Numbered from the stretch's first letter, positions 1,804-55,973 are shown. The stretch: 64,000 bases of DNA from an archaeon (GCA_029258795.1 JAPDKB010000002.1:50822-114821); one strand, 5' to 3'. Program-made: numbers and translations. The notes: a model not told the origin generated them from the letters alone.

Positions 1804-2262
1804 TAGAAATTATCCGAATCGCATGTTTACCTAATCGCCAACATAATGCGTTACGAATATCACAAGGAGTGCTATCATCACGTGTTCTGCTATCATGTTG
1901 ACCGGGGTTCATTTTTCATTCTGGCCATTCTGTAACTCAGAAATGAAAGGAGAGACAACTCCCAGAAAACGCTGACCAAAACAGCCTTCTCCAATTCCAG
2001 AAGCAACATGGGCACCAGAAAGCTGAGAGCGAAGATGCTTATTAGGGAGAAGGCTTGCTCTACCGTGGTTCATCACTCCATTAGCTTGTTTGATGAACAG
2101 GTGGAACAAGCCTCCCTATAAATGTTTTGTTATCGGGACAGTATCAAAATTCCGGACATGTCAACTTAAGAACCAATTTCTCCACTCTGGCATAAAAATC
2201 AAAATAAGGGGGCTCAGCATATCTTGATTTTGCAAAACACACCTTAAAGGAGGTGATATACC

Positions 2263-2893
2263 ATGCTGAGCCCCCATATAGATGAAATGTTCTCAAGGAT
2301 ATTTAAAAGAAACAAAAAGCTGAAAGAAAAACAAGATAAAGCCAGTATTGCTTTATTTCTCGGGATTATCATACAGAAAAGCAGGAGATGAAACAGATAT
2401 GAGCCATGAGAACGTGAGAAAGTTATTCAGAAAAACGAAAGAATTTCTCAGGGAAATAAAGCCAGTAAAAAGAAAAACGATAGCAATGGATGAGACGGTG
2501 ATAAAAACAAACGGGAGGAGATGTTACATTTACGCAGCTTACGCATGAGGGCTTATGCAGCAAGAAGTTATTTGGCAGCTCTGGATTTTGTAAAACGGGT
2601 TTTTGGAGTTGGGTAAGAAAATAATCTCCTGTTTGCTGTTGATAAGGCTCCGCGGCATTAGACGGGTTTTTGAAAGACCCGGGTTGAGATATGTGCATGA
2701 GACTTCTGGAATGAGGAATAAAGTGTGGAGGGGGATCTTTTGGTTATTTGAAGCAGGGAAGTGTTTTGTTTTATTCACGACAATTAATGTGAATTTGGGG
2801 TCTGTGTTTGGAAGAATGGATAAAAGGGTTGAGGGATGGAGAAGCTTTGAGGCATCTGAATTTGTTTTTGAAGTTGTTTATGGTTTATTATGA
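2263..2893 (+). pseudogene. Degraded IS6-like transposase (multiple frameshifts)
   Basis: Three consecutive frames together read like one IS6-type transposase: MLSPHIDEMF...ALFLGIIIQKSRR*, then LYFSGLSYRK...MDETVIKTNGRRCYIYAAYA*, then RSYLAALDFVKRV and LRYVHETSGMRNKV; no single intact ORF. Confidence 0.5.
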
Positions 2894-3282
2894 TTGGTTT
2901 GTCAGGAGGTGAGGCTTATCCGGATGCACTCCTTGCACATACCACAAACATTTATATATAACTTTTGCCAAAATATAAAGCCATGATTAAAGATGCAATA
3001 ATGTTGGTTTCTATAATGTGGGGTGGAAGGTCGAAACAATAAGAAAAGAAAGTGGAAAGAATCTTCTTTTGAAATTGACTTTATTTTATGTTGCGCTGGG
3101 TATTGCTATATTTTTTTACTATGTTCGGGACTTTTATGTATATAATCAGGCATTGGATTTTTTGTTCGGTAAAATAGGTGGAACATTCCATACAATTTCA
3201 TTCCTTTCCATTTTCCTCTTCTCCGTAGATATATTTTATTCAGAGAAGTGGAAGAGATAGATATGCTTACTTTCTGGGAATT

Positions 3283-3636
3283 TTGCTGATGACTGTTTTC
3301 GTGATTTTCCTGTGGAACGTAACGTTTGCCAGTGAAATTCAGGTGGTTAAGCTTGATAAGGAGTACGTCGTAACTCACGTTTATTTTCCAGATAAATCCG
3401 AAATGATGCTTTACGTTGTTTTAGTGAGTGTAATATCATTTTTACCTATTCTCTCATTTTTAGCTTACGGAATAAAGGTTCCGGCGAAAAGAAGAAAGGC
3501 TCTAACCTATTGTTTGGGAATAGCCGTTACCGCCTCAGGAACCATGCTTTGCCTCCTTATATCCCCAATACTTGCACGAGTTATGTATCTGCTGGGTGCA
3601 GTCATCTGCTATTATGCTTTCAAAATGAAGAGTTGA
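3283..3636 (+). CDS. Small hydrophobic membrane protein (hypothetical)
   Basis: 117-aa ORF with 3 predicted TM segments, in an AT-rich region; no recognisable family. Confidence 0.3.
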   Translation: MLMTVFVIFLWNVTFASEIQVVKLDKEYVVTHVYFPDKSEMMLYVVLVSVISFLPILSFLAYGIKVPAKRRKALTYCLGIAVTASGTMLCLLISPILARVMYLLGAVICYYAFKMKS

Positions 3637-3640
3637 GGTA

Positions 3641-4114
3641 ATGAACATGACTGTGCTGCGAAAAAAAGAAAGAAGCATATGTATATCCCAGAGAGAATGG
3701 GCGGTGATGACTAAAAGGTTGTATGAAGTTGCAGGAAAGGTTTTTGGTAGAGCGCTCTATGAAGGTGGACAGGTAAAAGGAAAGGAATTGGTAAAAAAAT
3801 ATGGCGTAAAGAAAGACGATTTGAAACAATTGCAAGAAGTAATAAAAAAAGAGGGCCTTGCAAGAAATGTGGAGATACATGATAGAGAAATATTGGTTGA
3901 AGGTTCTTTTGAAGGAGAAGCTCTAAAACCATACACAAGGCCTGTGTGTTTTTATCTCGCAGGGATCATTGCAACCATTTATTCAAAGATAGAAAAGGAA
4001 GATGTAAAAGTTGAAGAAACGGACTGCATCTCCACAGGTAAAAAAGTGTGCAGGTTTGTCGTCAGGCCGCTTGAGTGGTATGAAAAGATGAATGAAGTTA
4101 TGGAAATAATTTGA
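3641..4114 (+). CDS. V4R domain protein
   Basis: 157 aa; C-terminal motif CFYLAGIIATIYS...ETDCISTGKKVCRFVV matches the V4R (4-vinyl reductase) Cys pattern. Confidence 0.55.
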   Translation: MNMTVLRKKERSICISQREWAVMTKRLYEVAGKVFGRALYEGGQVKGKELVKKYGVKKDDLKQLQEVIKKEGLARNVEIHDREILVEGSFEGEALKPYTRPVCFYLAGIIATIYSKIEKEDVKVEETDCISTGKKVCRFVVRPLEWYEKMNEVMEII

Positions 4115-4345
4115 AAAAAGTAAGCATGTTTTGGCTTCGTTTCCTTATATAAAGGGACAAGCAATTGCGACTTACTTATTCATATTATATCGTTTGGATA
4201 GAGGATGCTTGGAACTTTTGAAGTGAGAGGCTTTGGGACACCTATGTAAGCCACCTCCAAACATTTTTATTGGTTATAAGCTATATATCTCTATCGAACA
4301 AACACCTATTCGCGGTCTAAGCCGCAGTATAGCATCTTCGTTCAT

Positions 4346-4419
4346 GGGGATAGGGAAAGCTTAATCAAAATGTCGCAGTCTTAAGCTGCATGTCCCAAGT
4401 CAAGCTTTTCCCTATCCCC
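4346..4419. repeat. 17-bp inverted repeat (GGGGATAGGGAAAGCTT / AAGCTTTTCCCTATCCCC) with ~40-bp spacer
   Basis: Direct reading of 4346-4362 against 4402-4419; additional short palindromes nearby (GCGGTCTAAGCCGC); non-coding stretch. Confidence 0.5.
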
Positions 4420-4562
4420 TAAACATTTCCTTTCTTTTAAGCATGAAGTAAATTGCAATGCATAACTTTCTTGCTGCAGCAACTATTGTTTTGTGTGCTT
4501 CATAAATACCCACGGTGAGAGTCTGGGTCTTCTGGTGGCTATGCCCGACCGGGTTTTTTGAT

Positions 4563-5443
4563 ATGAGAGTGTGCATTGTTGGTCCTGCGAATCCTGGCGA
4601 GACAGAGATAGCTCTCACCGAGGCCGCCAAAAAGCGCTATTCCAAGGTATTGTACGCGCCCTTTTCCCGTCTCAGGATAGAAATGGTTGCCGGAGAGCCG
4701 AGAGCCTTCTACAAGGAATAGACCTTTCAGAGTTTGACATTGTCATACCCCGCGTCAGGAGGAGCGACGCGGATTTCGCATACGTCCTCTTAGGGGTTCT
4801 CGAGGACCTGGGAGTCTATTCTCCAATCTCGAGGGACAGCATTCTCTACGGGTTCAACGAGTATCTCATACCTTTCATTCTCGGGAGGGCTGGGGTCGAG
4901 ACCCTCACAACCCTCCTGGGCTCTACCCGGGCCGCCCTCGAGAAATCGATCTCGAGGCTGAGGTTCCCCGTGGTGGTAAAACTCCCCCACAACAAGGACG
5001 GGGCAATGATAGTGGACAGCGAGAAGATCGCCAGGTGCGTGCTCGACACTCTCGAGAGCCTCGGAGAGCCGATAATAGTCCAGGAGATGCTCGAGGGATC
5101 TGAGAGCTTCAGCATCCTCTATATCGGGGAGAGAACATATTGCATAGAAAAGCACAACGGGACCGCGAGAAAGAGAAAGCTTGGCATAGAAGAAAAGCGG
5201 ACCGCGAGGCGCATGACATCCCTCCTGGGAGCGAGCGTGTGTCAGCTGAACGGAATGATCTCTGGAGATAGGCTCGTGGTCATAGACCTCAACATCAACC
5301 CCTGGGTGCACAGACTCCAGGAGCACTTCAAGACCAACCTGTTCGAAAAGATCCTGGACCACCTGGAGAGCGGGTACTCTTCCTCTCGACGGGGCACTAT
5401 CCTAGACAAGTTCCTGAAATGGTTCGAGGAGATGAGGTGGTAG
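4563..5443 (+). pseudogene. RimK-like ATP-grasp ligase interrupted by a frameshift at ~4715
   Basis: N-terminal part MRVCIVGPANPGETEIALTEAAKKRYSKVLYAPFSRLRIEMVAGEPRAFYKE* (ORF 4515..4721) continues in another frame as GIDLSEFDIVIPRVRRSDADFAYV...PVVVKLPHNKDGAMIV (ORF 4571..5443); junction sits at a GG run; region is markedly GC-rich versus flanks. Confidence 0.6.
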
Positions 5444-5613
5444 AGTGTACAACGTTCTCATTACGGCATCGCCAAGAGTCTTGTGGACTACCCGCCAGCT
5501 TATTGAGGAGGGCAGGAAGAAGTTCAACCTCCACGTTGTCTCTCTATATGTTATCAATATTGAGGTTTCTCCCGGGATCGTCTCGTGCAGGCACAAGCGC
5601 TATTTATAAACGT

Positions 5614-6954
5614 TTAGTTTTTGCGGGAGAATAAGTCCTTATAATGACCCCAGTCCAGAATCTCCTTTAAGAAATCATTTATTTTAGACTCCAACATTAT
5701 GAGCCTTCCATCAGGGTCATAAACCCTTTCCAGAATATTTATGCGCTCGTCCAAAGTATTCCCATTTAAGCCTTGATAAAGAGGAGAGGAAAGAACTTCA
5801 TACAGTTTTTTAAGAATTTGTTCTTCACAAGCAAGAGCTTTACATTCCCGGATTTCCGATTTATATTTTTTAATTTCTTCAACCCTATTCTTCATTATTG
5901 AAATGCTTTCGCTTATTTTCTTCAGTTTTTCTTCACAATCCTCTACTCCCTTTATACTGTATTTCTTAAGCCAGATTTTTAATATCTGTGGCGGGAAAGT
6001 TTTCGGATTCTCTAGTATAATCCCCGAAAGATTTTCATCTCTTACTACCGAATTAATTTCATTGAAGATATCATCTCTGTTTATAACGTAATCCCATTTT
6101 ATTTCTATACCTTCCCGTGTTTTTTTTCCAAATTTATTCAACATATTAACAAAACTTCTCGGCAGATTGTTTGAATGTTTCTCCCACATATACTCTATTT
6201 TTCTGTCAGCTTTCACTCTATAGACTGAAAATAGACACGAAGAAAGTGGAGGTTCTACGCAGATTGGAAGACCTGAGATGTCTTCCAGACCTGAGATCTC
6301 TTCCAGATTTTCAGATTCTATATAACGATTATACTCATAGATTGGGTTTTTTGTTGATATTATAATTCTCTTGCCTTCATCCCGTTGCTCAAGGGCTATT
6401 AATGCAAGTTCATTCATGACAGCTTTTCCTATGTCTCTTGTAGCTTCTCTTGCGACAAGATCTCCTACGTAGTCCCAGTTATCGATGCATACAACCTCTG
6501 CCTCATTTATAAGCTTTTTTGGGTCAGTTAGATCGGCTTTTAGGGTCCATTCCCATTTTTCTCTATTTTCCTCTGAAAGATATATTCTAGGGTCAAATGC
6601 CTTTATATCTCCTGTGAAGATATCGAAATATACTCCTGCAGGAAATATATCTTCTTCCGCTAAAATATTAAACGCAGCTAGAATTCTGGTGGTTTTTCCT
6701 ATACCTCTTGTTCCACGAAGTTCTATATTATCTGACTTGATCCTATCTGCTAATATTTTCGAGTCCAAATAATATACTTTACATTTTAGTATGTCATTCA
6801 ATAGATTATAGTCCATTTCTTCCGCTCTGAGCGGAATATTCGGAGAGTAATCTTCTGATGTCACTTGATTTGGACTTTTAATATCAGTTTCCTTCATAGA
6901 TAGAAATTTTTGACATAAAATTTTAAATAATTTTGGCTCCACGCCATAAAACAT
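5614..6954 (-). CDS. Orphan P-loop NTPase (archaeal ATPase-like), function unknown
   Basis: 446 aa; Walker A LRGTRGIGKTTRIL, Walker B-like VVCIDNWD; coiled-coil-rich C-terminus; AT-rich gene beside IS elements. Confidence 0.55.
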   Translation of the reverse strand: MFYGVEPKLFKILCQKFLSMKETDIKSPNQVTSEDYSPNIPLRAEEMDYNLLNDILKCKVYYLDSKILADRIKSDNIELRGTRGIGKTTRILAAFNILAEEDIFPAGVYFDIFTGDIKAFDPRIYLSEENREKWEWTLKADLTDPKKLINEAEVVCIDNWDYVGDLVAREATRDIGKAVMNELALIALEQRDEGKRIIISTKNPIYEYNRYIESENLEEISGLEDISGLPICVEPPLSSCLFSVYRVKADRKIEYMWEKHSNNLPRSFVNMLNKFGKKTREGIEIKWDYVINRDDIFNEINSVVRDENLSGIILENPKTFPPQILKIWLKKYSIKGVEDCEEKLKKISESISIMKNRVEEIKKYKSEIRECKALACEEQILKKLYEVLSSPLYQGLNGNTLDERINILERVYDPDGRLIMLESKINDFLKEILDWGHYKDLFSRKN

Positions 6955-6978
6955 ATAAAAAACATTTAATTCGGCAAG

Positions 6979-7819
6979 GATTCATAACAAAAACAAGAGC
7001 TTTCTCTATTCCATCATCCAATTAATTTCCCATAAATTCAAAAACGAAGAAAATTTTTTCATGTTCTTAAAACCGCGAAACTTTCTGTATCTGTTCCTGA
7101 GCCATGAGATCAAACCTTCTGCCCTGTTATTGCTAAGAAAATAAATCATACCTTTATGAAAAACAATCTTTTTTTCAAAATGAGCTATAACACGCTTAAT
7201 CTTTCTAATTCTTAACCCCTTTCTCAGGGTTTTACTATCATATCCATACCATCCATCCGTTACTATTATCTCAGGTTTGTATCCCGCATTCTCTATAGCT
7301 TTTCTAAGCAATCTAACAACTTCTTTGCTTTCCCTTCTATCACTAACATGCATTGCCATAATTCTTGATCTTTCATCGCAGCAAACATAAAGATAGTTCA
7401 TTCTTCCCTTAGCTTTAACATACATCTCATCCAAATGCCATACCTCTGCAATTTTTTCAAATTCCTTATTCTTTGCCTTAAGCTCTTTGAGAAACTTTTT
7501 ATCCTTTCCAAATTTATGTATCCAGTTAAGAACAGTTCTTGCAGGAACTCTTATTCCTTTAAATTTTTCCATAATCTTCTCAACATCATAGGTTGAAACA
7601 ACAAATCTTGAGTAAAGCCACAGGCAAAGCATAACAATCTCTTTATCATATCTTATCCTCGCAAATTCGTCCATACCTTTTTCTGAGAAAACGTAGAAAC
7701 ATTTTTTGCATCTGTATCTCTGGTATTTCTTATCTTTATGTTTGTAAAAACCCAGCTTCCATATATCTCTTGATGAGCATCTGGGACATGAAATCTTCAT
7801 GAATTTTTTATTATGAATG
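6979..7819. mobile_element. IS6-like insertion sequence (~840 bp) with imperfect terminal inverted repeats
   Basis: Left end ATTCATAACAAAAA (~6980-6993) versus reverse complement of right end ATTCATAATAAAAA (~7805-7818), 13/14 match, bracketing the transposase ORF 7006..7800. Confidence 0.5.
7006..7800 (-). CDS. DDE transposase, IS6-family-like, with N-terminal zinc finger
   Basis: 264 aa; CPRCSS...YRCKKC zinc ribbon; DDE region WHLDEMYVKAKGRMNYLYVCCDERSR...IIVTDGWYGYD resembles the IS6 DETYVK..G..YL..A.D motif (IS1-like is an alternative). Confidence 0.7.
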   Translation of the reverse strand: MKISCPRCSSRDIWKLGFYKHKDKKYQRYRCKKCFYVFSEKGMDEFARIRYDKEIVMLCLWLYSRFVVSTYDVEKIMEKFKGIRVPARTVLNWIHKFGKDKKFLKELKAKNKEFEKIAEVWHLDEMYVKAKGRMNYLYVCCDERSRIMAMHVSDRRESKEVVRLLRKAIENAGYKPEIIVTDGWYGYDSKTLRKGLRIRKIKRVIAHFEKKIVFHKGMIYFLSNNRAEGLISWLRNRYRKFRGFKNMKKFSSFLNLWEINWMME

Positions 7820-7826
7820 AGGTTAT

Positions 7827-8726
7827 TTATATGTTTTTTGGCGTAGAACCCATTAATTTCTCTATTACTGCCAGAGTTTTCCCTATTAAATTTGTTTTTA
7901 AATTAAGCAAAAATTCGAAAAAGCTTACCCATAAGCTAAGATATTTCTTGCTTATCCCCCTAAACACCCTATACCATGATTTTAAAAAAGAAAATCTATT
8001 CTCTGCATTGTTAATATGAACATTGCCTTCCGCAAACCTTTTCTTGTTATGCGGGATTATTCCATGTTTATAACCTTTTCTCTCTATTTCCTTTGTATAA
8101 ATAGGAAAGTCATCAGTATTTACTATAGAGCCTTTCTCAACATAAGTTTCGAGTAGCTCTAAAACAAGCTCTTCACTTAAGCCTTCCAGAGCTACGAAGA
8201 ATATGCTCTTACCTTTTCTTTCAGTTAAAACTATGACTGGAGTTTTGCCTTCTTTTAGCCCACCTCTACCTTTAATTCCAGTTCCACCCCTCTTCATAGG
8301 CTTTCTAGAAAGCCTTCTATTACCCTTTTCACCAGCTGTTAGATAGGTTTCATCCATCTCAACATTAACTTTTAGCTTGGAAGCTATTTGCCTTGCAAGC
8401 AAATCTTGCTTGATTTTCTTAGCTGCTTTCCAAACATGCTCATATTTTCTACCAAGATCGATTGCTATTGAATAAATGCTTCTTCCAGCCGAATGCTCTT
8501 TTATTATATAAGACCATTCCCAAATCGGTAGCTTTGATTTATCGAATATCGTTTTGGTTCTATTGTTGAAAGTTCTTTTGCATTTTTTGCAAAGATAGCG
8601 TTGAAAGCCTTTCTTATCCTCACCCCTCTTAACAACCTCCTTTGACCCGCAGAAAACGCACCTTACTCCTTCTTTCCATCTAAGCTTTTGGATTATTTCT
8701 ATGCACTTCTCATCACCTGGGGGCAA
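7827..8726 (-). CDS. IS1595-family-like transposase
   Basis: 299 aa; N-terminal zinc ribbon CVFCGS...QRYLCKKCKRTF; DDE motifs VEMDETYLTAGEKG and VNTDDFPIY; C-terminal NAENRFSFLKSWYRVFRGISKKYLSLWVSFFEF typical of IS1595/ISH4. Confidence 0.7.
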   Translation of the reverse strand: MPPGDEKCIEIIQKLRWKEGVRCVFCGSKEVVKRGEDKKGFQRYLCKKCKRTFNNRTKTIFDKSKLPIWEWSYIIKEHSAGRSIYSIAIDLGRKYEHVWKAAKKIKQDLLARQIASKLKVNVEMDETYLTAGEKGNRRLSRKPMKRGGTGIKGRGGLKEGKTPVIVLTERKGKSIFFVALEGLSEELVLELLETYVEKGSIVNTDDFPIYTKEIERKGYKHGIIPHNKKRFAEGNVHINNAENRFSFLKSWYRVFRGISKKYLSLWVSFFEFLLNLKTNLIGKTLAVIEKLMGSTPKNI

Positions 8727-8820
8727 AATCTCTTGCAGTCAGCATACATTGTTATTTTATAGTTTTCTATTTTCGTTATGAGATGTGAGCGAAAGCTTTT
8801 TGTAGTTGATTTTTTGAACT

Positions 8821-9636
8821 TTGTTTATGATGCCCGGTAAAAAAGCTGTGATTCTAATAGGAGGAATGATAATGGTTGTGGCAGTTCTGAGCTTATGCGT
8901 GCAGAAACCGGAAGAAGGGGCACCCACGATTCAGCCAGGAAAGGAATTAAAGCTTTCTGATTTCCCTGAAGTGTTTAGCGAGAGTACTTTGATTGTTGTT
9001 GGAGACAACGCTTCTGAGGTTGAAGTTCAAGCAGCTAATGAAATTGCTGAATATTTGGAGGATGAGACCGGGAATAAACCTTTGATAAAGAAGTATTCTG
9101 AGGTTAGTGAGGAAGATAAGAGAAATTACAACTTGATTATTGTTGGCGCTTCTAATTCTAACCCTATGCTAAGGAAAGTCTCTGAGGAATGTACAAGAAA
9201 GAACTTCAAAAAATTAGAATTTAAGGGAGTTAATAGTTATTGGCAGGGCACAGGTAAAGGATACATACTTATTTTAGAAAACTTATGGTCGACAAGTAAA
9301 TGTATGTTGATTGTTGATGGATATGACAGCAGCGGGCTAGAATCTGCAGTTAGCACCCTTTTAAATACAGATATAATTATGTCCATAAACAATAGCGGTA
9401 TTTTAGTAAAATTAGAGAGTAGTACTCGAATACAAACTCTTCCAGTGTCTAAACTTTCAAAAATAGTGGCTAAAGATATTGCAGCAGAGTATTTGATAAA
9501 ACGATGTCAAACTATTCCTGAGGATAGTTTTAAGCTGAAAGTGTCGGATTTTGGAGATTACTGGCTAATTGAAGGAGGCTGTATCAAACTTCTAGTAGAT
9601 AAAAATAATGGTTTTGTAGAGGAGGTGAAATCTTGA
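8821..9636 (+). CDS. Secreted protein with S-layer-like N-terminal domain
   Basis: 271 aa; N-terminal signal/TM; conserved block TLIVVGDNASEVEVQAANEIAEYLEDETGNKPLIKKYSEVSEEDKRNYNLIIVGASNSN resembles archaeal S-layer N-terminal domains; paralog of the 9757..10685 gene. Confidence 0.55.
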   Translation: MFMMPGKKAVILIGGMIMVVAVLSLCVQKPEEGAPTIQPGKELKLSDFPEVFSESTLIVVGDNASEVEVQAANEIAEYLEDETGNKPLIKKYSEVSEEDKRNYNLIIVGASNSNPMLRKVSEECTRKNFKKLEFKGVNSYWQGTGKGYILILENLWSTSKCMLIVDGYDSSGLESAVSTLLNTDIIMSINNSGILVKLESSTRIQTLPVSKLSKIVAKDIAAEYLIKRCQTIPEDSFKLKVSDFGDYWLIEGGCIKLLVDKNNGFVEEVKS

Positions 9637-9756
9637 AGGCCAATTAATGACCTTCTTTGTATTATTCGTTCTCTTGTGTCCTACTGCATACGACATTCTA
9701 TCATCGAGATACTCTCTAAAATTCTATAGTAGTAACCAACTTTTGAAAGTTCACAT

Positions 9757-10685
9757 TCATGTATTATCACCTCCTACTAACATGGAACCGTCGCTACATC
9801 CTTCAGCCTGGCATGGAACTTTTACATTTTTTAAACCCCAGTCGTGGATCACTACTAAATTTAGACTCTTATTTAGATTAATCACAGCACAACTATGGTT
9901 GACAATATAGTTCAGAGTTGGATAACCTACGAAATAAGTTTCGTTTGATGATAAAAAGCTCTTGTTAACAATTATTCTCCCGTAATATTTATCTTCGCCA
10001 ACCTGGTGTAAAGGTGCTGTAACTATTTCTTTAATCGACTCGAACGTTCTTGTACTTTTATTATATCCGATCAATTGATATAAAGTCACTACTTTAGGTG
10101 GCTCTCCACTTAACTCATATTTTGGATCTGATGGTTCATCTGTTAGAACTAAAACATCTATTCTGATCTTGTCCTTAATGCTTGGAGCAATTACTACACT
10201 GGTTTCATTTTTAATCAGTGCAATCGGGTTTAGTTCAAGTCCCGCACTATACACCCCCACTCATCCCACCCTTCAACCAGTAACATCGCCTTATTTTTAT
10301 TCCAAGGATTCCTCAAAATTTCCAAAACACCCTTACCCTCTCCCGGAAATGTATCATTAACTTCCAAAACATCAACCATAGAATAAACTTCTATCAGCAT
10401 GAGATTGGAATTCGGCGTGCCAACAACAACTAAATTGTGGTTTCTTTTATCTTTCTCCGTGATTTCAGAATATTTTTTTATTAAGGGTTTATCCCCTGTT
10501 TCATTTTCCAAATAAGAGGTAATCTCGTTTGCGGCTTGCAATTCAATCTCAGAAGCATTATCACCAACGATAATTAAGGTATTATTCCCGAAATTTTGCC
10601 AGAGGAAAATGCCTATTATCAAAAGGATTAAAATTACGGTTCCTGCAATAATTAAGATCTTTCTGTTCATCATAATGTTTATCAT
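9757..10685 (-). pseudogene. Frameshifted paralog of the S-layer-domain protein
   Basis: ORFs 10230..10685 and 9757..10260 overlap by 31 nt in different frames; together they align with the 8821..9636 protein (LLVEGWDE then SAGLELNPIALI versus LIVDGYDSSGLESAVSTLL); shift lies in a poly-C run near 10254-10258. Confidence 0.55.
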
Positions 10686-10843
10686 TAAGTCTCATTATGC
10701 TTTTTTAATTATAAAATTTACGGCTCCAAGCGGCTTCGAGACAAAATTCATAGCTTGAGTTTTCGAGCTATGAAGATCAGAACTCCATACCACAAAAATT
10801 AGTTAGCTAAAACATTTCCGTATAAAAAACCATATTATACAGC

Positions 10844-11848
10844 ATGGGGGATAAAAAGAAAAGAAAAATAACAACCGAGGAAATAAGAGACATTACAAAC
10901 AAACTTGATAAAATAATCAAATATTACAAAGAGAAATACGGGGAAGATAAGAGCAGGAGAGACTGGCGTACATATGAGCAGAGAAGAACATTAAGGATGA
11001 AGCAGGCAGGGAGAGAGCTAAAAAATCTTATAGAAAGGGCTGCAGAGAATATAGAAATAGCTAAGGATAACAACAGGGGAAGAAAGCCGAAGCTTACAGC
11101 CAAGGACAAAGCCCTGATCATTCTTATAAAGGAAATATTCGATCTGAGCAACAGAGAACTTGCTGATATGATATTCATCTTTTCCTTAATGGCAGGAGTT
11201 GATGTAAGTTATAAAACCATTGAGAGAGCTTACGATGATGAGCTTGTTAAGTTAAGCCTGCACAACTTATTCGTTCTCATGGTTAAGGAAAAGATTATAG
11301 ATGATGTTGAGCTTGCTGGAGATGGAACTGGATACAGCTTGAGCATTAAGAAGCAATATGCTGATATTGAGGATGAGGGAAAGCAAAGAAAGGATTTCGT
11401 TTATTACTTTGCTCTGCTCGATTTAAGAACAAATCTTTATGTTGGATATGGCTACAGTAAAAGGTCGGAGAGGGATGCTTTTGATAAGGCCATGAAAATT
11501 ATGAGTAAGCTCGGCATTAATGTTAAGAGTGTGAGGCTTGATAGATATTATTCAAGCAACGCTGTGGTTAAAGAATATTTTGATGATAAGGATGTTAAGC
11601 TTTATTTAATTCCCAAGAAGAATGCTTCTGTTAAAGGCTGTAAGAAATGGAAGGAAGTTATGCATGGCTTTGCTGATGATGTTTACGGGTTTTTGCGTGA
11701 GTATTTTAAAAGGAATAAAGTTGAAAGCATGTTTTCCTTTGATAAGCGTAAGTTTTCTTCTCGATTAAGGGTCAGGAAGGATGAGAGAATTGCTACGAGC
11801 TTGCTTGCAAGGACTGTCTTGCATAATTTGTTTTGGTTTTATGGTTAG
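10844..11848 (+). CDS. Putative DDE-type transposase (family uncertain)
   Basis: 334 aa; lysine-rich N-terminus with HTH-like region, LAGDGTGYSL and later acidic motifs; sits among IS elements; family assignment not verified. Confidence 0.45.
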   Translation: MGDKKKRKITTEEIRDITNKLDKIIKYYKEKYGEDKSRRDWRTYEQRRTLRMKQAGRELKNLIERAAENIEIAKDNNRGRKPKLTAKDKALIILIKEIFDLSNRELADMIFIFSLMAGVDVSYKTIERAYDDELVKLSLHNLFVLMVKEKIIDDVELAGDGTGYSLSIKKQYADIEDEGKQRKDFVYYFALLDLRTNLYVGYGYSKRSERDAFDKAMKIMSKLGINVKSVRLDRYYSSNAVVKEYFDDKDVKLYLIPKKNASVKGCKKWKEVMHGFADDVYGFLREYFKRNKVESMFSFDKRKFSSRLRVRKDERIATSLLARTVLHNLFWFYG

Positions 11849-11923
11849 CTATTGGGTTAATTTTGTCCCAAAGCCACCACAACCACAAACTTTATATACG
11901 ACGATCGCAATATTTCTATCTGG

Positions 11924-12952
11924 GTGATTTGGATGGCGGAGAATTCTCCTAATTACCGATATGATCCTCTCATAGGCGAGCTTTACTTGAATAAAATCTC
12001 GTGTGAGTTAACAACCAGAAAGTTTCACAATGACTTGAGGAGGGAGTTCGAGGCCATTCTGGGCGCGGTAGCTAAATCCATGTTCTACACGGTGGGTAAG
12101 GTAACGGGCATGATTGTTGCAAAGTACTTTGATGATATTGATGTGCTTTCGTGGATGGGTTGGGGTGTGCCTCTGGTTAAAAAAGATGGAAGCGTGGAAG
12201 TTAAAAATTCTTACATGACCATGTATCGGAGCGAGATAGGCAAGAAGTCATGCGATATCGTTGCAGGATTTCTGGCAGGGTGGTTCAGTAGGAAGGAAAA
12301 GGATAATGTCGATTTTATAGAATCGAGGTGCGCCTCAACCACTAAGTTCAAGACCTGCAGGTTTGAAAGGGTTGAAAAGAATGTGGCTGTCGAAGTACCT
12401 AAAATCAGGATGAAGAAGCCCAGAGAACACCTGAAAAATGTGAATATAAACCTGAAACCATCCAGTGGTGAGATAATTTATAGGGGAGATTCGTCTCTCA
12501 TCATTCCACGTGGCTTTACCGCGATCTTTCAGAGGGAATTTGAAAGGGTGATCGGGGCTGTTGCTTCCAGAAAAATGTACGAAGTTGTGAAGAAAATAAG
12601 TTATGAGGCAGTTGTGAAGGAGCAGGGGTTCAGGTTTATTGGACTTGCTATTCTTCCCAAATTCATCCGTGCAAAGCTGCTTCTTCATGAAGAGCTTGTG
12701 CAGCTACCCGAAAGAGGTTTTGGGAATGTCAGGGTTTTAAGACTGGATTTGAAGGAAGGGATTCTGCTGGAAATTGATAATTCTTACAACGCATTCACCT
12801 ACGGTAAGGTTGGCAAGCCCGTGTGTCACACGCTTGCAGGAGTTCTTGCGGGAGGTGCCAAGGCGGTGATTGGCGGAGATTGGGAATGCGTGGAGAATAA
12901 ATGCGTTGCTGCAGGAGATGGTGTCTGCGAGTTCGAGTTGAAGCCGGCGTGA
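11924..12952 (+). CDS. Tandem V4R domain protein
   Basis: 342 aa; two repeats ending in V4R-like Cys motifs (CDIVAGFLAGWFS...CASTTKFKTCRFE and CHTLAGVLAGG...WECVENKCVAAGDGVCEFEL). Confidence 0.55.
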   Translation: MIWMAENSPNYRYDPLIGELYLNKISCELTTRKFHNDLRREFEAILGAVAKSMFYTVGKVTGMIVAKYFDDIDVLSWMGWGVPLVKKDGSVEVKNSYMTMYRSEIGKKSCDIVAGFLAGWFSRKEKDNVDFIESRCASTTKFKTCRFERVEKNVAVEVPKIRMKKPREHLKNVNINLKPSSGEIIYRGDSSLIIPRGFTAIFQREFERVIGAVASRKMYEVVKKISYEAVVKEQGFRFIGLAILPKFIRAKLLLHEELVQLPERGFGNVRVLRLDLKEGILLEIDNSYNAFTYGKVGKPVCHTLAGVLAGGAKAVIGGDWECVENKCVAAGDGVCEFELKPA

Positions 12953-13011
12953 AAGTACTGCAAAATTTAAAAGTTAACGCTGTAAAATATTTTTCGTTCT
13001 CCTGCCCGGGT

Positions 13012-13181
13012 GCGGGGGTTGCCGAGCCTGGCCAAAGGCGCTGCCTTGAGGGGGCAGCCGCCGCGGTGTATGAGAGGTGGCGCCGCAGTGGCCCATTCCC
13101 TTAGTGGGTTCGAGGGTTCAAAAGCTTGGTCAAGCCGTCCTCCCTCGGCAGCTTAAATGGCTGGAAGTCCCTCCCCCCGCA
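13012..13181 (+). tRNA. tRNA-Leu (anticodon GAG, tentative) with two non-canonical introns (variable region and T-loop)
   Basis: GCGGGGG acceptor pairs with CCCCCGC+A+CCA; D-arm GCCGAGCCTGGCCAAAGGCG; anticodon arm CTGCC-TTGAGGG-GGCAG; T-stem GAGGG...CCCTC split by ~45 nt; ~40 extra nt before the variable arm (TCCCTTAGTGGGTTC). Confidence 0.6.
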
Positions 13182-13213
13182 CCACCATCATGCTTCATGT
13201 TCCTTACGTTCAT

Positions 13214-13351
13214 GCGGGGGTTGCCGAGCCTGGCCAAAGGCGCGGGGCTTAGGACTCCGTGGCTCAGTGCCTGCGTGGGTTCGAAGGCCGCTGTTCGGTG
13301 GCTGGGTTTTCAAGTCCGATCTTAACGCGGCCGGAACTCCCACCCCCCGCA
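13214..13351 (+). tRNA. tRNA-Leu (anticodon TAG) with T-loop intron
   Basis: Same 30-nt 5' end as the upstream Leu gene; anticodon arm CGGGG-CTTAGGA-CTCCG; long variable arm; T-stem GTGGG...CCCAC interrupted by ~50 nt after TTCGAA; CCA encoded. Confidence 0.65.
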
Positions 13352-13423
13352 CCAGCCCGAACCAGATTTCTGCCAAGAATTCACCATTAATTATATAAAC
13401 GATGAAATCCCCAACCTTTACTC

Positions 13424-15463
13424 ATGAAGAAAGTACCGATCATGAGCGCTCTTTTAATCTCCGTATTTGTTTTTATCCTATTTCTCCCAGCATCCCATGC
13501 GGTTCAGATAATCATAATCAACGAAACTGAGGAATTCGCGCCAGCAAACCTCGAAAAAATGGTTATCAGTGGCGATCTATTTGAGGGCATGCTGTATTTT
13601 AGCGCAGAAGGTTATGCGGCTGAAACCGGAGGGAAGGCAAAGGTTTACATAGCAGGAAAGCCCTCCGACATTCTTGTTGAAAGCGTGACAATCAACGGAA
13701 ATGAAGGAAAGGTGTTTTTTGACGAGCGGGGGTATTTTGTGGTTGTTGATACGCCCTCCTTCCATCTTGAAGGCAGGATAAAAGTGAGGAGCGGCGATAA
13801 CATTCTGTTTTTCCCCGGACCAATAAACAAGCTGGAGTTCCGGCTTAAACATGGCTATGCGATAAACGGTCCGGAGTTTTACGGTGTGGTGAACAAGACA
13901 ATCACCCTCAAGAAAACTTTCGTGGAAAGGTACATCTCTGTTACTGGCTCTGGCAAGATAACTGTCGAAAGCACAAATACTGTAAGGTTCAAGTACGTGT
14001 TCGAGGTTGCGGGATATGGAGGGGTTATAGGCACGCTATCAATACCTCTGAACAACGGCGAGCTTGTTAACATCATTGACGTGGATAACTGCGCTGGTTC
14101 CAGCTGGAACAAGAACGAGGAAGGCATAACCTTCCAGCTGCCGTGCGAGAAGGCAATAATCACGCTGGAAGGTGTGTTCTCCTGCGGGGAATGCAATTCT
14201 ATCCGCTTCACAAACCCGATAGACAGCTATATGAAAGTGATTGTGGAGGCAGTGCCGGAAAAGAAGCTCACAATCAGGACATATGCAACGGAGCTGGATG
14301 TGAGTGAAGCACCATTTCCCATGCAATATCCTAACGGCAGGGTCTTTCTGCTCAGCGGGCATCAAGCCATGACTATTGAGGTTGAGGAGCTTGAGAAACT
14401 TCCTGCTCTTGCCGCAACTATTGATAGGGCAAAATGTACGCAAGCCATAAATAAGGATGGTGCTGCACTGACGAGTTGCGAGTACCGCTACAAGAACAGC
14501 GGTATGGATTTCATAAAGTTTGAGCTGGAAGGCACGCCATTATATGCTGAAGCTAACGATAAGTCGCTCAGGCTTACGGTTGAAGATGATGACCTTTATC
14601 TCGCTTTTCCGAAGAGCAGGTATGGAGGAGATATGGAAATCATGTATTTCACGAGCATGTCAAGAATTCTACCTATTGATTTGATCAGCTTGCCCATCCC
14701 ATCCACAGAAGTTCCAACAACCGAAATGGCTGTCGATGTTTACCTGCCCAAGGACGTTTACGTTCTGGCAGCTTTTGGAGGGGACAGATTTACAAGCGAG
14801 CTTCCTGCTCTTGAGTTTGTTGTGGCGTTCACCATAGCAGTGCTTCTTGTTGGACTCGCGCTGTGGAACGATAAGAGGAAGCTTCTCATGTTTTATGTCG
14901 TTTCCGCAGCCATATACTTCATCTCCCAGCAGCTCTTCCTGATATGGCTTGCAATCTGCCTGCTTCCGTTTGTTAAGCGCAACCTGCCGACGGAGGAAAT
15001 AAAGAAGACGTGGAGGGTTATAAAGTTTCTTCTTGCTACGGGAATTGTCATAGCTGCTCTGTTTTTCGTTATTTCATGGCTGTTTTCCGGAACGGGTAGC
15101 TATATGGCAGCTAAGCAAGAAGCGGCAGTGTATAAAGCTACAGGTGAGCGATTCATTGGAAATATGCCGGTGGTGGAGGAGAAGAGTGTGCAGCTTGGCG
15201 AGGAGGGTAAGGGAACAATAACCATACAGCTGAAGGAGGGAATAAAGCCGGTGAAGATGGAGATACCGCAGCTGGGTAAGGTTGTCTCGCTGCACCGCGC
15301 TCTTGTGACAGCGGAAAGACCGGCAAGCTTTAAGCTGGTTGTGATTGACAGGCTTGTGATCTACATGTTGCTGCTGGTAGCTCTCTATTTCTTCCTCAAA
15401 CTGCTTCCCGATCTCAAGAAAGCGTACATCGATGCATTTCCCTCTCTCAGAAAAATAAGGTGA
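13424..15463 (+). CDS. Large secreted/membrane-anchored protein (hypothetical)
   Basis: 679 aa; N-terminal signal peptide MKKVPIMSALLISVFVFILFLPASHA; several C-terminal TM helices; no recognisable catalytic motifs. Confidence 0.5.
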   Translation: MKKVPIMSALLISVFVFILFLPASHAVQIIIINETEEFAPANLEKMVISGDLFEGMLYFSAEGYAAETGGKAKVYIAGKPSDILVESVTINGNEGKVFFDERGYFVVVDTPSFHLEGRIKVRSGDNILFFPGPINKLEFRLKHGYAINGPEFYGVVNKTITLKKTFVERYISVTGSGKITVESTNTVRFKYVFEVAGYGGVIGTLSIPLNNGELVNIIDVDNCAGSSWNKNEEGITFQLPCEKAIITLEGVFSCGECNSIRFTNPIDSYMKVIVEAVPEKKLTIRTYATELDVSEAPFPMQYPNGRVFLLSGHQAMTIEVEELEKLPALAATIDRAKCTQAINKDGAALTSCEYRYKNSGMDFIKFELEGTPLYAEANDKSLRLTVEDDDLYLAFPKSRYGGDMEIMYFTSMSRILPIDLISLPIPSTEVPTTEMAVDVYLPKDVYVLAAFGGDRFTSELPALEFVVAFTIAVLLVGLALWNDKRKLLMFYVVSAAIYFISQQLFLIWLAICLLPFVKRNLPTEEIKKTWRVIKFLLATGIVIAALFFVISWLFSGTGSYMAAKQEAAVYKATGERFIGNMPVVEEKSVQLGEEGKGTITIQLKEGIKPVKMEIPQLGKVVSLHRALVTAERPASFKLVVIDRLVIYMLLLVALYFFLKLLPDLKKAYIDAFPSLRKIR

Positions 15464-30868: not shown

Positions 30869-30988
30869 TGCGCCGGCCGGGATTTCCTGCTGCGGAACAG
30901 CCGGAAATGTGAGGGAGTTTCTTCCGCAGCAATCGAACCCGGGTCAGCGGCTTGGGGGGCCGCTGTCATACCACTAGACCACCGGCGC
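30869..30988 (-). tRNA. tRNA-Gly (anticodon CCC, tentative) with T-loop intron
   Basis: Reverse complement gives GCGCCGG acceptor pairing with CCGGCGC+A+CCA; anticodon arm GCGGC-CCCCCAA-GCCGC (unusual C at position 33); T-stem CCGGG...CCCGG split by ~47 nt after TTCGA. Confidence 0.6.
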
Positions 30989-35215: not shown

Positions 35216-35365
35216 GGGCCGGTGGTCTAGCCTGGAAGGACGTCGCCTTGGCATCACACAGCTTTCACGGCTGTGTGCCAGTATGGCGGAGGCCCCGGGT
35301 TCAAAATGGCTGCTTACGCCGTTTTAAGAATCGGGCAAGCTTTCATGAAAATCCCGGCCGGTCCA
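35216..35365 (+). tRNA. tRNA-Ala (anticodon GGC) with a canonical anticodon-loop intron and a second intron in the T-loop
   Basis: Acceptor GGGCCGG/CCGGTCC gives the G3:U70 alanine identity pair; D-arm GTCT-AGCCTGGAA-GGAC; anticodon stem TCGCC...GGCGG with ~30-nt insert after TTGGCA containing a 9-bp hairpin; T-stem CCGGG...CCCGG split by ~45 nt; CCA encoded. Confidence 0.75.
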
Positions 35366-35403
35366 CCACATATAAATTTTTTTCTCTCCATCTTTAACTC
35401 TCA

Positions 35404-51984: not shown

Positions 51985-52105
51985 CCCGCCGTAGCTTAGT
52001 CTGGTAGAGCGCTCGGCTGTAGGTCTGTGCCGCGTGGTATGGCGCAGCCACGCAGCCAGTTGCTCAGAAACCGAGAGGTCCCCGGTTCGAATCCGGGCGG
52101 CGGGA
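51985..52105 (+). tRNA. tRNA-Tyr (anticodon GTA) with canonical anticodon-loop intron (~47 nt)
   Basis: Acceptor CCCGCCG/CGGCGGG+A+CCA; D-arm GCTT-AGTCTGGTA-GAGC; anticodon stem CTCGG...CCGAG with CTGTAG then intron; intact T-arm CCCGG-TTCGAAT-CCGGG. Confidence 0.75.
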
Positions 52106-52432
52106 CCAAATTGAAAATGCTAGATTTTTCATAACAAACATGTATTCAAAATCCAATCGGTAATTTTTTATAAGTAAAAATGAACGGATATGAAAGGGGA
52201 TTTGAACACTTCTGACTGTTCAAGAAATATTCTGAAAAAGATTAGAAATATTTCCACCTTATCTATGAGACCACAAAACTTATTAAGCACTTTTTGACGA
52301 ATTATGAGAAAAGCTAGTTATTTAGAAGTGAATAACTCATTTTGTAAAGGACTCCCCACAAAAGAAATTAGAAACACAGAGGGAAAATTAAACATTTTTT
52401 ACAAATGGTCTATTAAGTAATGAATGAGGAAA

Positions 52433-55852: not shown

Positions 55853-55973
55853 AGCCCCGGCCGGGATTTTCATGGAAGATTACTCGACCCTTAAAGCGGC
55901 GTCGAGCAGCCATTTTGAACCCGGGACCTCTTCCTTACCAGGGAAGCGCTCCACCAGGCTGAGCTACCGGGGC
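55853..55973 (-). tRNA. tRNA-Thr (anticodon GGT) with T-loop intron
   Basis: Reverse complement: acceptor GCCCCGG/CCGGGGC+T+CCA; D-arm GCTC-AGCCTGGTGGA-GAGC; anticodon arm CTTCC-CTGGTAA-GGAAG; T-stem CCGGG...CCCGG split by ~45 nt. Confidence 0.7.

Follow-up and report, generated by a model that had tools for sequence, protein, structure and literature searches.

Tandem tRNA-Leu genes in an archaeal genome carry probable bulge-helix-bulge introns at non-canonical positions

Two leucine tRNA genes lie in tandem on the + strand of a 64,000-nt stretch of archaeal DNA (GCA_029258795.1 JAPDKB010000002.1:50822-114821), which was analyzed at its full length and is called the window hereafter. The first, tRNA-Leu(GAG), extends over 173 nt (13012-13184) and contains two inserts, and the second, tRNA-Leu(UAG), over 141 nt (13214-13354) with one insert; both encode their own CCA. 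In all likelihood they are distinct and functional class II tRNA genes that stand in an ancestral tandem and are interrupted by protein-spliced introns of the bulge-helix-bulge (BHB) type at non-canonical positions. The original prediction had described, from the sequence alone, tandem tRNA-Leu genes sharing their 5' 30 nt, reading GAG and TAG in the anticodon, and carrying two inserts and one, respectively, and this description is borne out by the sequence search. In fact, the 30-mer GCGGGGGTTGCCGAGCCTGGCCAAAGGCGC occurs exactly twice in the window, starting at 13012 and 13214, and so does the motif CCCCCGCACCA, starting at 13174 and 13344, whereas the anticodon loops are TTGAGGG in gene 1 (GAG at 13048-13050) and CTTAGGA in gene 2 (TAG at 13250-13252). 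The start given for the pair, 13012, stands; its end has to be moved from 13351 to 13354, where gene 2 is completed by the encoded CCA.

The assignment is based on splicing in silico. Both genes were scanned for BHB motifs, defined as a 4-bp helix between two 3-nt bulges with the cut after the second bulge base. All three inserts are bounded by such a 3-4-3 motif, and just one combination of cuts restores tRNAs. The spliced products are 89 nt each and are called by ARAGORN as Leu(gag) 1-89 and Leu(tag) 1-89, with full class II cloverleafs, while the unspliced forms, as well as the partly spliced forms in which either intron of gene 1 is kept, give no ARAGORN call. After splicing, the T-loops are canonical (TTCAAAT in gene 1 and TTCGAAT in gene 2) and the 7-bp acceptor, the D, the anticodon and the T arms are complete. 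As for the class II traits, the variable arms are 15 nt long and have a stem of 3 bp (TCCCTTAGTGGGTTC and TGGCTCAGTGCCTGC, respectively), A73 is followed by CCA, and the anticodons are of the NAG type. A copy that failed to fold into a cloverleaf once its introns were removed had been expected of a pseudogene; both genes fold.

In gene 1, exon 1 (13012-13057) comprises the 5' strand of the acceptor stem, the D arm and the anticodon arm, and ends at standard position 43, where a first intron of 39 nt (13058-13096) separates the anticodon stem from the variable arm (position 43/44). Exon 2 (13097-13122) contains the variable arm TCCCTTAGTGGGTTC, the 5' strand of the T-stem, GAGGG, and the T-loop nucleotides TTCAAA up to position 59; a second intron of 45 nt (13123-13167) lies in the T-loop at position 59/60, and exon 3 (13168-13184) provides T60, the 3' strands of the T-stem and of the acceptor stem, the discriminator A and the encoded CCA. 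At 43/44 a 3-4-3 BHB can be drawn with the central helix (H) GGGC/GCCC and the bulges AG^C and AT^T (the caret marks the cut); its helix h has 2 bp, its helix h' has 3 bp plus a 6-bp inner hairpin, and the lengths of h and h' are the same in the window and in two related genomes, L011 and L012. The 59/60 intron forms a strict hBHBh' motif: the 5-bp T-stem provides h, the central helix is TTCA/TGGA with bulges AA^A and AG^T, and GCT/GGC makes up h'.

Gene 2 has a simpler structure. Exon 1 (13214-13285) extends from the 5' strand of the acceptor stem, through the variable arm TGGCTCAGTGCCTGC, to position 59 of the T-loop; the single intron, 52 nt long (13286-13337), is again located at 59/60, and exon 2 (13338-13354) has the same content as exon 3 of gene 1, that is, T60, the 3' strands of the T-stem and acceptor stem, the discriminator A and the encoded CCA. 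This intron is also bounded by a strict hBHBh' motif, with the 5-bp T-stem, H TTCG/CGGA, bulges AA^G and AC^T, and h' GCCGC/GCGGC. Compared with its orthologs, the exon has changed from A57 to G57, and the change is matched by C for T at the first position of the intron strand of the central helix (H3), so that exon G57 and the intron H3 position co-vary.

The relatives used for comparison are L011 (= L033, GCA_015520605) and L012 (GCA_027038505), found by a genome scan with the 30-mer, and L035 (GCA_054011715), found through protein look-ups; they represent two species-level groups. The metagenome-assembled genomes (MAGs) L011 and L012 are labeled "Nanobdellati archaeon" (the DPANN kingdom) at NCBI and filed as unclassified. 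Proteins of the window and of the relatives are 72% identical for gyrA, 70% for ThiI and 92% for ribosomal protein L15e, and the order gyrA - Val(CAC) - Leu(GAG) - Leu(UAG) - ... - ThiI - L15e is common to all of them. In the relatives, Leu(GAG) carries the 43/44 intron only and Leu(UAG) is uninterrupted. Spliced gene 1 is 2 nt apart from the uninterrupted Leu(GAG) genes of the metagenome loci L023 and L027, at acceptor pair 3:70, and 3 nt apart from the spliced L011 gene, while spliced gene 2 is 2 nt apart from the uninterrupted Leu(UAG) genes of L011 and L012. In MAFFT alignments to uninterrupted genes the gaps fall exactly on the predicted introns, and the splice junctions are therefore independently validated; this applies also to the 43/44 intron, which coincides exactly with the alignment gap against the intron-less gene of L027.

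The three introns have different histories. L011 and L012 each have a homolog of the 43/44 intron at this position (z 11-14), and the H3 variants of the intron among the window, L011 and L012, namely GCCC, GCTC and GTCC, all pair with GGGC; this intron predates the split from the relatives of ~70% identity. The 59/60 intron of Leu(GAG) is absent from the orthologs in L011, L012, L035 and L027, and that of Leu(UAG) from the orthologs in L011, L012 and L035. The most parsimonious reading is that the two T-loop introns were gained separately and recently in the lineage of the window. The independent gain of introns, as first proposed for the pair, thus agrees with the absence of the T-loop introns from the orthologs of the relatives and with their mutual dissimilarity (z 1.2, p 0.14).

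A processing pathway can be proposed for the pair. The primary transcript covering both genes would start ~25 nt downstream of TTTAAAAG (12966); two pre-tRNAs with genome-encoded CCA would then be released by RNase P and 3' trimming; the archaeal splicing endonuclease EndA would cut in the two 3-nt bulges of each BHB, and an RtcB-type ligase would join the exons to give the two 89-nt tRNAs. The T-loop BHBs are compatible with the cloverleaf, since the T-stem supplies their outer helix and one strand of their central helix consists of T-loop nucleotides 54-57; for the 43/44 BHB, the anticodon stem has to give up nucleotides 38-41, which then pair with the 3' end of this intron. The excision of the introns and the roles of the enzymes are what we infer from established features of archaeal tRNA splicing (PMC4090602, PMC3239211, PMC5829648). 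An EndA of broad specificity would presumably be needed, because the motif of a tRNA-Gly gene of the window has three of the four central pairs and no strict BHB was found for the insert of its tRNA-Val gene.

The transcription of the pair is predicted from the sequences flanking the genes. A TATA-box-like motif, TTTAAAAG (12966-12973, + strand), lies 46 nt upstream of gene 1 and is the probable promoter of a two-gene unit. Promoter boxes were read for the Leu, Ala, Tyr, Thr and Val genes of the window (Gly was left out): a box of the TTTAAA(A) type is found 41-61 nt upstream of Leu-GAG, Ala, Tyr and Thr, and also of the Leu genes of the relatives, whereas Val(CAC) has only an A/T box of the TAATATTT type at -35. 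The intergenic spacer between the two Leu genes (13185-13213, + strand) is 29 nt long and has neither a TTTAAA box nor an oligo-T run; in the relatives, the corresponding spacer is of 137 nt, with T5-T6 runs and its own TTTAAAA box. Since the spacer of the window, unlike that of the relatives, is without both signals, the two Leu genes are probably transcribed together, as one unit, from the box at 12966, and the shrinkage of the spacer from 137 to 29 nt would have removed the promoter box of gene 2 and the terminator of gene 1. In this respect the pair resembles co-transcribed tRNA genes: the spacer is short (29 nt), a single promoter box lies upstream, and no terminator comes between the genes. 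In the closest relatives each Leu gene is a unit of its own, with promoter and terminator, and the fusion thus appears to be lineage-specific.

Several observations speak against this interpretation. Nearest-neighbor calculations make the 43/44 BHB conformer less stable than the conformer that keeps the anticodon stem, by ~11 kcal/mol at 37 °C or 5 kcal/mol at 70 °C, and the H3 variants of the relatives fit both conformers equally. The folds combining cloverleaf and BHB lie 7-11 kcal/mol above the unconstrained minimum free energy (MFE); the unconstrained MFE folds show no cloverleaf with BHB and have unremarkable z-scores (-0.8 and -1.3), and constrained folds were used because the MFE is uninformative for tRNA precursors. 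Pfam scans of ~60 open reading frames (ORFs) of the window found neither EndA (tRNA_int_endo) nor RtcB. Gain rather than loss of the T-loop introns is read from three relatives, in two species-level groups, and from more distant intron-less genes. Finally, co-transcription is read from missing motifs, and the T-loop intron of gene 1 contains a weak TTAAAT, at -61 relative to gene 2, that may offer an alternative promoter.

According to this alternative, gene 2 would be transcribed alone from within the intron, the candidate box being CTTAAATG (13152-13159), 61 nt upstream. In L011 and L012 the orthologous gene has its TTTAAAA box at this very distance of -61, and no other A/T box is present upstream of gene 2. 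However, TTAAAT is weaker than the other promoters that were read and is without their A-rich upstream element, A/T-rich central loops are found in all T-loop introns, so that this one is nothing special, and read-through from gene 1 is to be expected anyway across a spacer without a terminator. We consider a separate promoter improbable and a single transcription unit the more probable reading of the pair.

The identical 5' ends had been interpreted as the sign of a duplication followed by anticodon switching, and this part of the original prediction does not survive the comparison with other genomes. As a rival explanation, it would require a recent tandem duplication of one tRNA-Leu gene, a switch of the anticodon in either direction, and then divergent gain or loss of introns. 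The exact direct repeat is indeed striking: it measures 31 nt once the preceding T is counted, its copies are 202 nt apart, a chance repeat of this length in 64 kb has an expectation of ~1e-9 by our own estimate, and the 3' ends of the two genes are identical as well. Nevertheless, the same 30-mer heads tRNA-Leu genes with CAG, GAG, TAG and TAA anticodons across at least six distant archaeal groups (Thermococci, Methanothermococcus, Aciduliprofundum, Methanomicrobia, Nitrosopumilales and DPANN MAGs), and is a deeply conserved module of the acceptor and D arm rather than a marker of recent duplication. Of the 89 positions of the mature tRNAs, 18 differ between the two genes of the window, and all of these fall among the 48 positions outside the 30-mer module and the acceptor 3' strand: nine of 16 in the anticodon arm, six of 15 in the variable arm and three of 17 in the T arm. 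Some of the changes are compensated ones, in the stems of the anticodon, variable and T arms. Furthermore, paralogs closer to each other than to their orthologs, as expected of recent tandem duplicates, were not found; each gene has in L011 an ortholog much nearer than its paralog (3 nt for gene 1 and 2 nt for gene 2, against 18 nt), in the same tandem order and in genomes ~70% identical at the protein level. An intron-less Leu(GAG)-Leu(UAG) tandem is also present in an unrelated GC-rich contig. A recent duplication is therefore very unlikely, and the two Leu genes are old isoacceptor paralogs in a conserved tandem, any duplication long predating the lineage.

The contig just mentioned (Ga0256842_1000095, locus L029) is of metagenomic origin and carries the two genes at ~5868-6080, ~35 nt apart, so that the GAG-UAG tandem order is not unique to the DPANN-labeled clade. 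A metagenome scan with the anticodon arm of Leu(GAG) returned only intron-less genes of other lineages.

Slightly less probable still is that one or both Leu copies are pseudogenes inactivated by insertions, with functional copies elsewhere in the genome: standard tRNA finders miss or mis-call both genes, gene 2 has no promoter box of its own and our view of the genome is limited to 64 kb, but every insert has a complete BHB whose removal restores canonical T-loops, all stems and A73-CCA, the exons are strongly conserved (2-3 differences from orthologs), exon G57 and the intron H3 position have co-evolved, and the same architecture is found in all seven tRNA genes of the window, which cannot represent the decay of a whole tRNA set.

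The census of the window counted these seven tRNA genes, all of them interrupted, with nine introns in total, five of which are at 59/60; since the strict BHB scan missed Val, Tyr and Gly, seven may be a lower bound. tRNA-Val(CAC) (1682-1803, + strand) follows directly after gyrA and has a 49-nt insert in the D-loop (~1704-1752, with a boundary ambiguous by 2 nt); no strict 3-4-3 BHB was found in this insert, ARAGORN and Rfam miss the gene, and the otherwise near-identical orthologs in L011, L012 and L035 are without the insert. tRNA-Gly(CCC) (30988-30866, - strand) contains a 49-nt 59/60 intron (30883-30931) with three of four pairs in the central helix, and its orthologs in M10 (L040) and S144 (L041) are uninterrupted. 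tRNA-Ala(GGC) (35216-35368, + strand) has two introns, at 37/38 (35254-35283) and at 59/60 (35306-35351); in M10 the gene retains the 37/38 intron only, and in S144 it has the 37/38 intron and a different 59/60 intron. tRNA-Tyr(GUA) (51985-52108, + strand) has an anticodon-loop intron of 47-50 nt and gives a clear full-span Rfam match (57 bits), as no other tRNA gene of the window does. Finally, tRNA-Thr(GGU) (55973-55850, - strand) is interrupted at 59/60 (55867-55913). Among the relatives, 59/60 introns occur in Leu(CAG) of M10 (L002, 6272-6321) and in Ala(GGC) of S144 (L041, ~3902-3950).

The G+C content of the tRNAs is 67-71%, compared with 44% for the window. The G+C content of structural RNA correlates with growth temperature, and the high values of the tRNAs thus suggest that the source organism is a thermophile.

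The distribution of the 59/60 introns raises the question of their mobility. Five of the seven tRNA genes of the window are hit at this site, which is empty in two sister genomes for Leu(GAG), Leu(UAG) and Gly(CCC), and in one of two sister genomes for Ala(GGC). The 59/60 introns of Ala and Thr of the window are 81% identical (z ~18) and flanked by identical T-arm exons, a likeness that is, on sequence grounds, the apparent signature of intron transfer between unrelated tRNAs. Other resemblances are shorter: the 59/60 intron of Gly shares 13 of 14 nt at its 5' end with that of Leu(CAG) in M10 (z 5.7) and also resembles that of Ala in S144 (z 5.4); that of Leu(UAG) shares 13 of 15 nt with the latter (z 4.0, p 0.002), which is borderline after 36 comparisons; and that of Leu(GAG) matches weakly with that of Leu(CAG) in M10 (p 0.01). 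The motif GGCUG, usually UGGCUG, is present in all six independent 59/60 introns, at differing places in the intron, and a sharing at the observed level was reached in none of 5000 shuffles of the intron interiors (five 59/60 introns); it is partly accounted for by the closing pairs of h' and by the pairing of UG with the CA of the T-loop.

These data can be read as the trace of one actively mobile BHB family with a conserved UGGCU(G) core, comprising the 59/60 introns of the clade and caught in mid-burst in the lineage of the window, a possibility that we put forward only tentatively. The spread between unrelated tRNAs would be easy to understand, as the intron strand YGRR would pair with the near-universal TTCR of the T-loop and any tRNA would fit unadapted; we infer that the 59/60 position is favored because the exon strand of the central helix is this nearly universal TTCR. 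If the mobile family is real, the site pairs of the window and its relatives are unusually young filled and empty sites for studying how protein-spliced introns move. For the gain of archaeal BHB introns, reverse splicing, recombination between conserved T-arms and remnants of integrating elements have, among other ideas, been put forward. The filled and empty sites seen here are clean ones, in genomes whose proteins are 70-90% identical, and provide material on which such ideas of intron gain can be tested.

As a separate observation, GGCU is complementary to AGCC in the D-loops of the Leu, Ala and Thr tRNAs, while Gly(CCC), also interrupted at 59/60, is without AGCC. Other origins and functions of the introns were considered and rejected. 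A D-loop-like AGCTTGGTCAAGCC and a T-arm-like GGGTTTTCAAGTCC, noticed by eye in an intron of Leu(GAG) and in that of Leu(UAG), respectively, had prompted the idea that the introns derive from tRNA fragments, but local alignment of the nine introns with six mature tRNAs gave nothing at p <= 0.02. Similarly, no known small RNA, such as a C/D-box guide, appears to be encoded by the introns, given that no Rfam match below E = 2 was obtained in 12900-13450, and those up to E = 10 belong to unrelated bacterial or viral families. A blastn-short search of all introns against the window and the fetched loci, looking for extra copies, recovered the introns themselves and chance matches of 12-13 nt.

The structure of the Leu genes stays within the known BHB/EndA paradigm. 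Canonical introns at 37/38 (Marck and Grosjean, 2003, cited in PMC4090602) have the same 3-4-3 geometry, the same cut after the second bulge nucleotide and the same presumed enzymes, EndA and RtcB; their outer helix is the anticodon stem, unlike the introns described here, in which it is the T-stem at 59/60 and a 2-bp helix, available after opening of the anticodon stem, at 43/44. Position 59/60 is a recognized non-canonical site and is listed as a hotspot (PMC4090602); 43/44 is not in the position list of the same paper, which ends in 'etc.' (the primary tables were not checked).

The closest parallels are found in two groups. In the Thermoproteales (Pyrobaculum, Thermofilum and Caldivirga), multi-intron tRNA genes and intron transposition have been described (Sugahara, 2008; Fujishima, 2010; summarized in PMC4090602, PMC4033280 and PMC8450103), with 0.84 introns per tRNA gene against an archaeal average of 0.21 (PMC8450103); the window has ~1.3 (nine in seven). 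Genes with several introns, and kindred introns in different tRNAs, are the hallmark of this order (PMC4033280, PMC8450103). Like the Thermoproteales, the window shows short BHB introns at non-canonical sites including 59/60, dense and up to two or three per gene, with related introns at the same position in tRNAs of different identity and a presence that varies between close relatives. Unlike them, the lineage of the window is not TACK, its nearest MAGs being DPANN/Nanobdellati, and the spread is concentrated on the T-loop site 59/60. Among DPANN lineages, those with an L3 loop in EndA commonly have disrupted tRNA genes (PMC5829648), and ARMAN-2 (Ca. Micrarchaeum; PMC3239211, PMC12397907) is likewise DPANN-affiliated with most tRNA genes disrupted. 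Its 59/60 T-loop introns are found in pre-tRNA-Cys(GCA) and tRNA-Pro(GGG) (PMC3239211, PMC12397907), and the former is cut in vitro by the epsilon2 EndA (PMC3239211); however, the intron tested is of 13 nt with a relaxed hBH motif, whereas the T-loop introns of the Leu genes are of 45-52 nt with strict hBHBh' motifs, and ARMAN-2 is an acidophile rather than a thermophile. Intron-dense tRNA sets in which different tRNAs have related introns are best known from the Thermoproteales and ARMAN-2, for both of which intron mobility is described, and the window shows the same pattern in another uncultivated, DPANN-labeled, probable thermophile. What may be new here is the lineage, the focus of the introns on the T-loop, the occurrence of filled and empty sites in genomes closely related to each other and, possibly, the 43/44 position.

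These genes easily escape annotation. On the raw window ARAGORN does not find gene 1 and puts gene 2 in a wrong frame, at 13223-13300, the Rfam tRNA model at gathering score misses both Leu genes, and Rfam applied to the whole window (E <= 0.5) reports only a signal recognition particle (SRP) RNA and two tRNAs. Overall, no fewer than five of the seven tRNA genes go unrecognized or are mis-called with default tRNA finders, so that genomes of this lineage would seem to be without Leu, Val, Gly and Ala tRNAs. The repeat is itself an obstacle: the Logan assembly of SRR22064148 breaks in the second 31-nt copy (13213-13243), contig SRR22064148_5244 starting at 13217, which implies that assemblies with k=31 split the locus and that the tandem tRNA genes are likely lost there. 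Four ORFs of 60-90 aa overlap the region, three in sense (12901-13104, 13077-13325 and 13126-13398, + strand) and one in antisense (13188-13376, - strand). They had been described as antisense artefacts of GC-rich RNA; only one in four is antisense, and the reading as artefacts is reasonable, because none has Pfam or protein support of its own and tblastn with these ORFs matches only the tRNA exons of relatives.

The surroundings of the locus also differ from those in the relatives. Val(CAC) and Leu(GAG) are separated by ~11 kb in the window (1805-12950) and by ~125 nt in the relatives. The segment contains two V4R-domain genes, S-layer-like ORFs, a RimK-like ATP-grasp gene and two insertion sequence (IS) transposases: one is IS6/IS240-like (7006-7800) and lies between 29-nt inverted repeats (6935-6963 and 7822-7850), and the other is IS1595-like (7827-8726). 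The idea of an element integrated at the tRNAs as its attachment site found no support, as no tRNA-derived direct repeats flank the 11 kb, and structured repeats are limited to the inverted 29-nt ends of the IS. The closest strain, L032 (same ThiI cluster at >=90% identity), is represented by a contig that stops 254 nt past ThiI, before the tRNAs; L030 and L031, with ThiI 69-71% identical, have no tRNAs between ThiI and gyrA, and homologs of the 679-aa downstream ORF occur in other contexts.

Around tRNA-Ala, the order KaiC - tRNA-Ala - DHODH - amidohydrolase - MC1 - Nre is kept in both M10 (L040) and S144 (L041), and of these two only M10 has the Lon_C gene after Nre. In the window, the SRP RNA (RF01857; 40258-40534, + strand), which at 139 bits identifies the DNA as archaeal, is located between the Nre gene and the Lon_C-domain gene.

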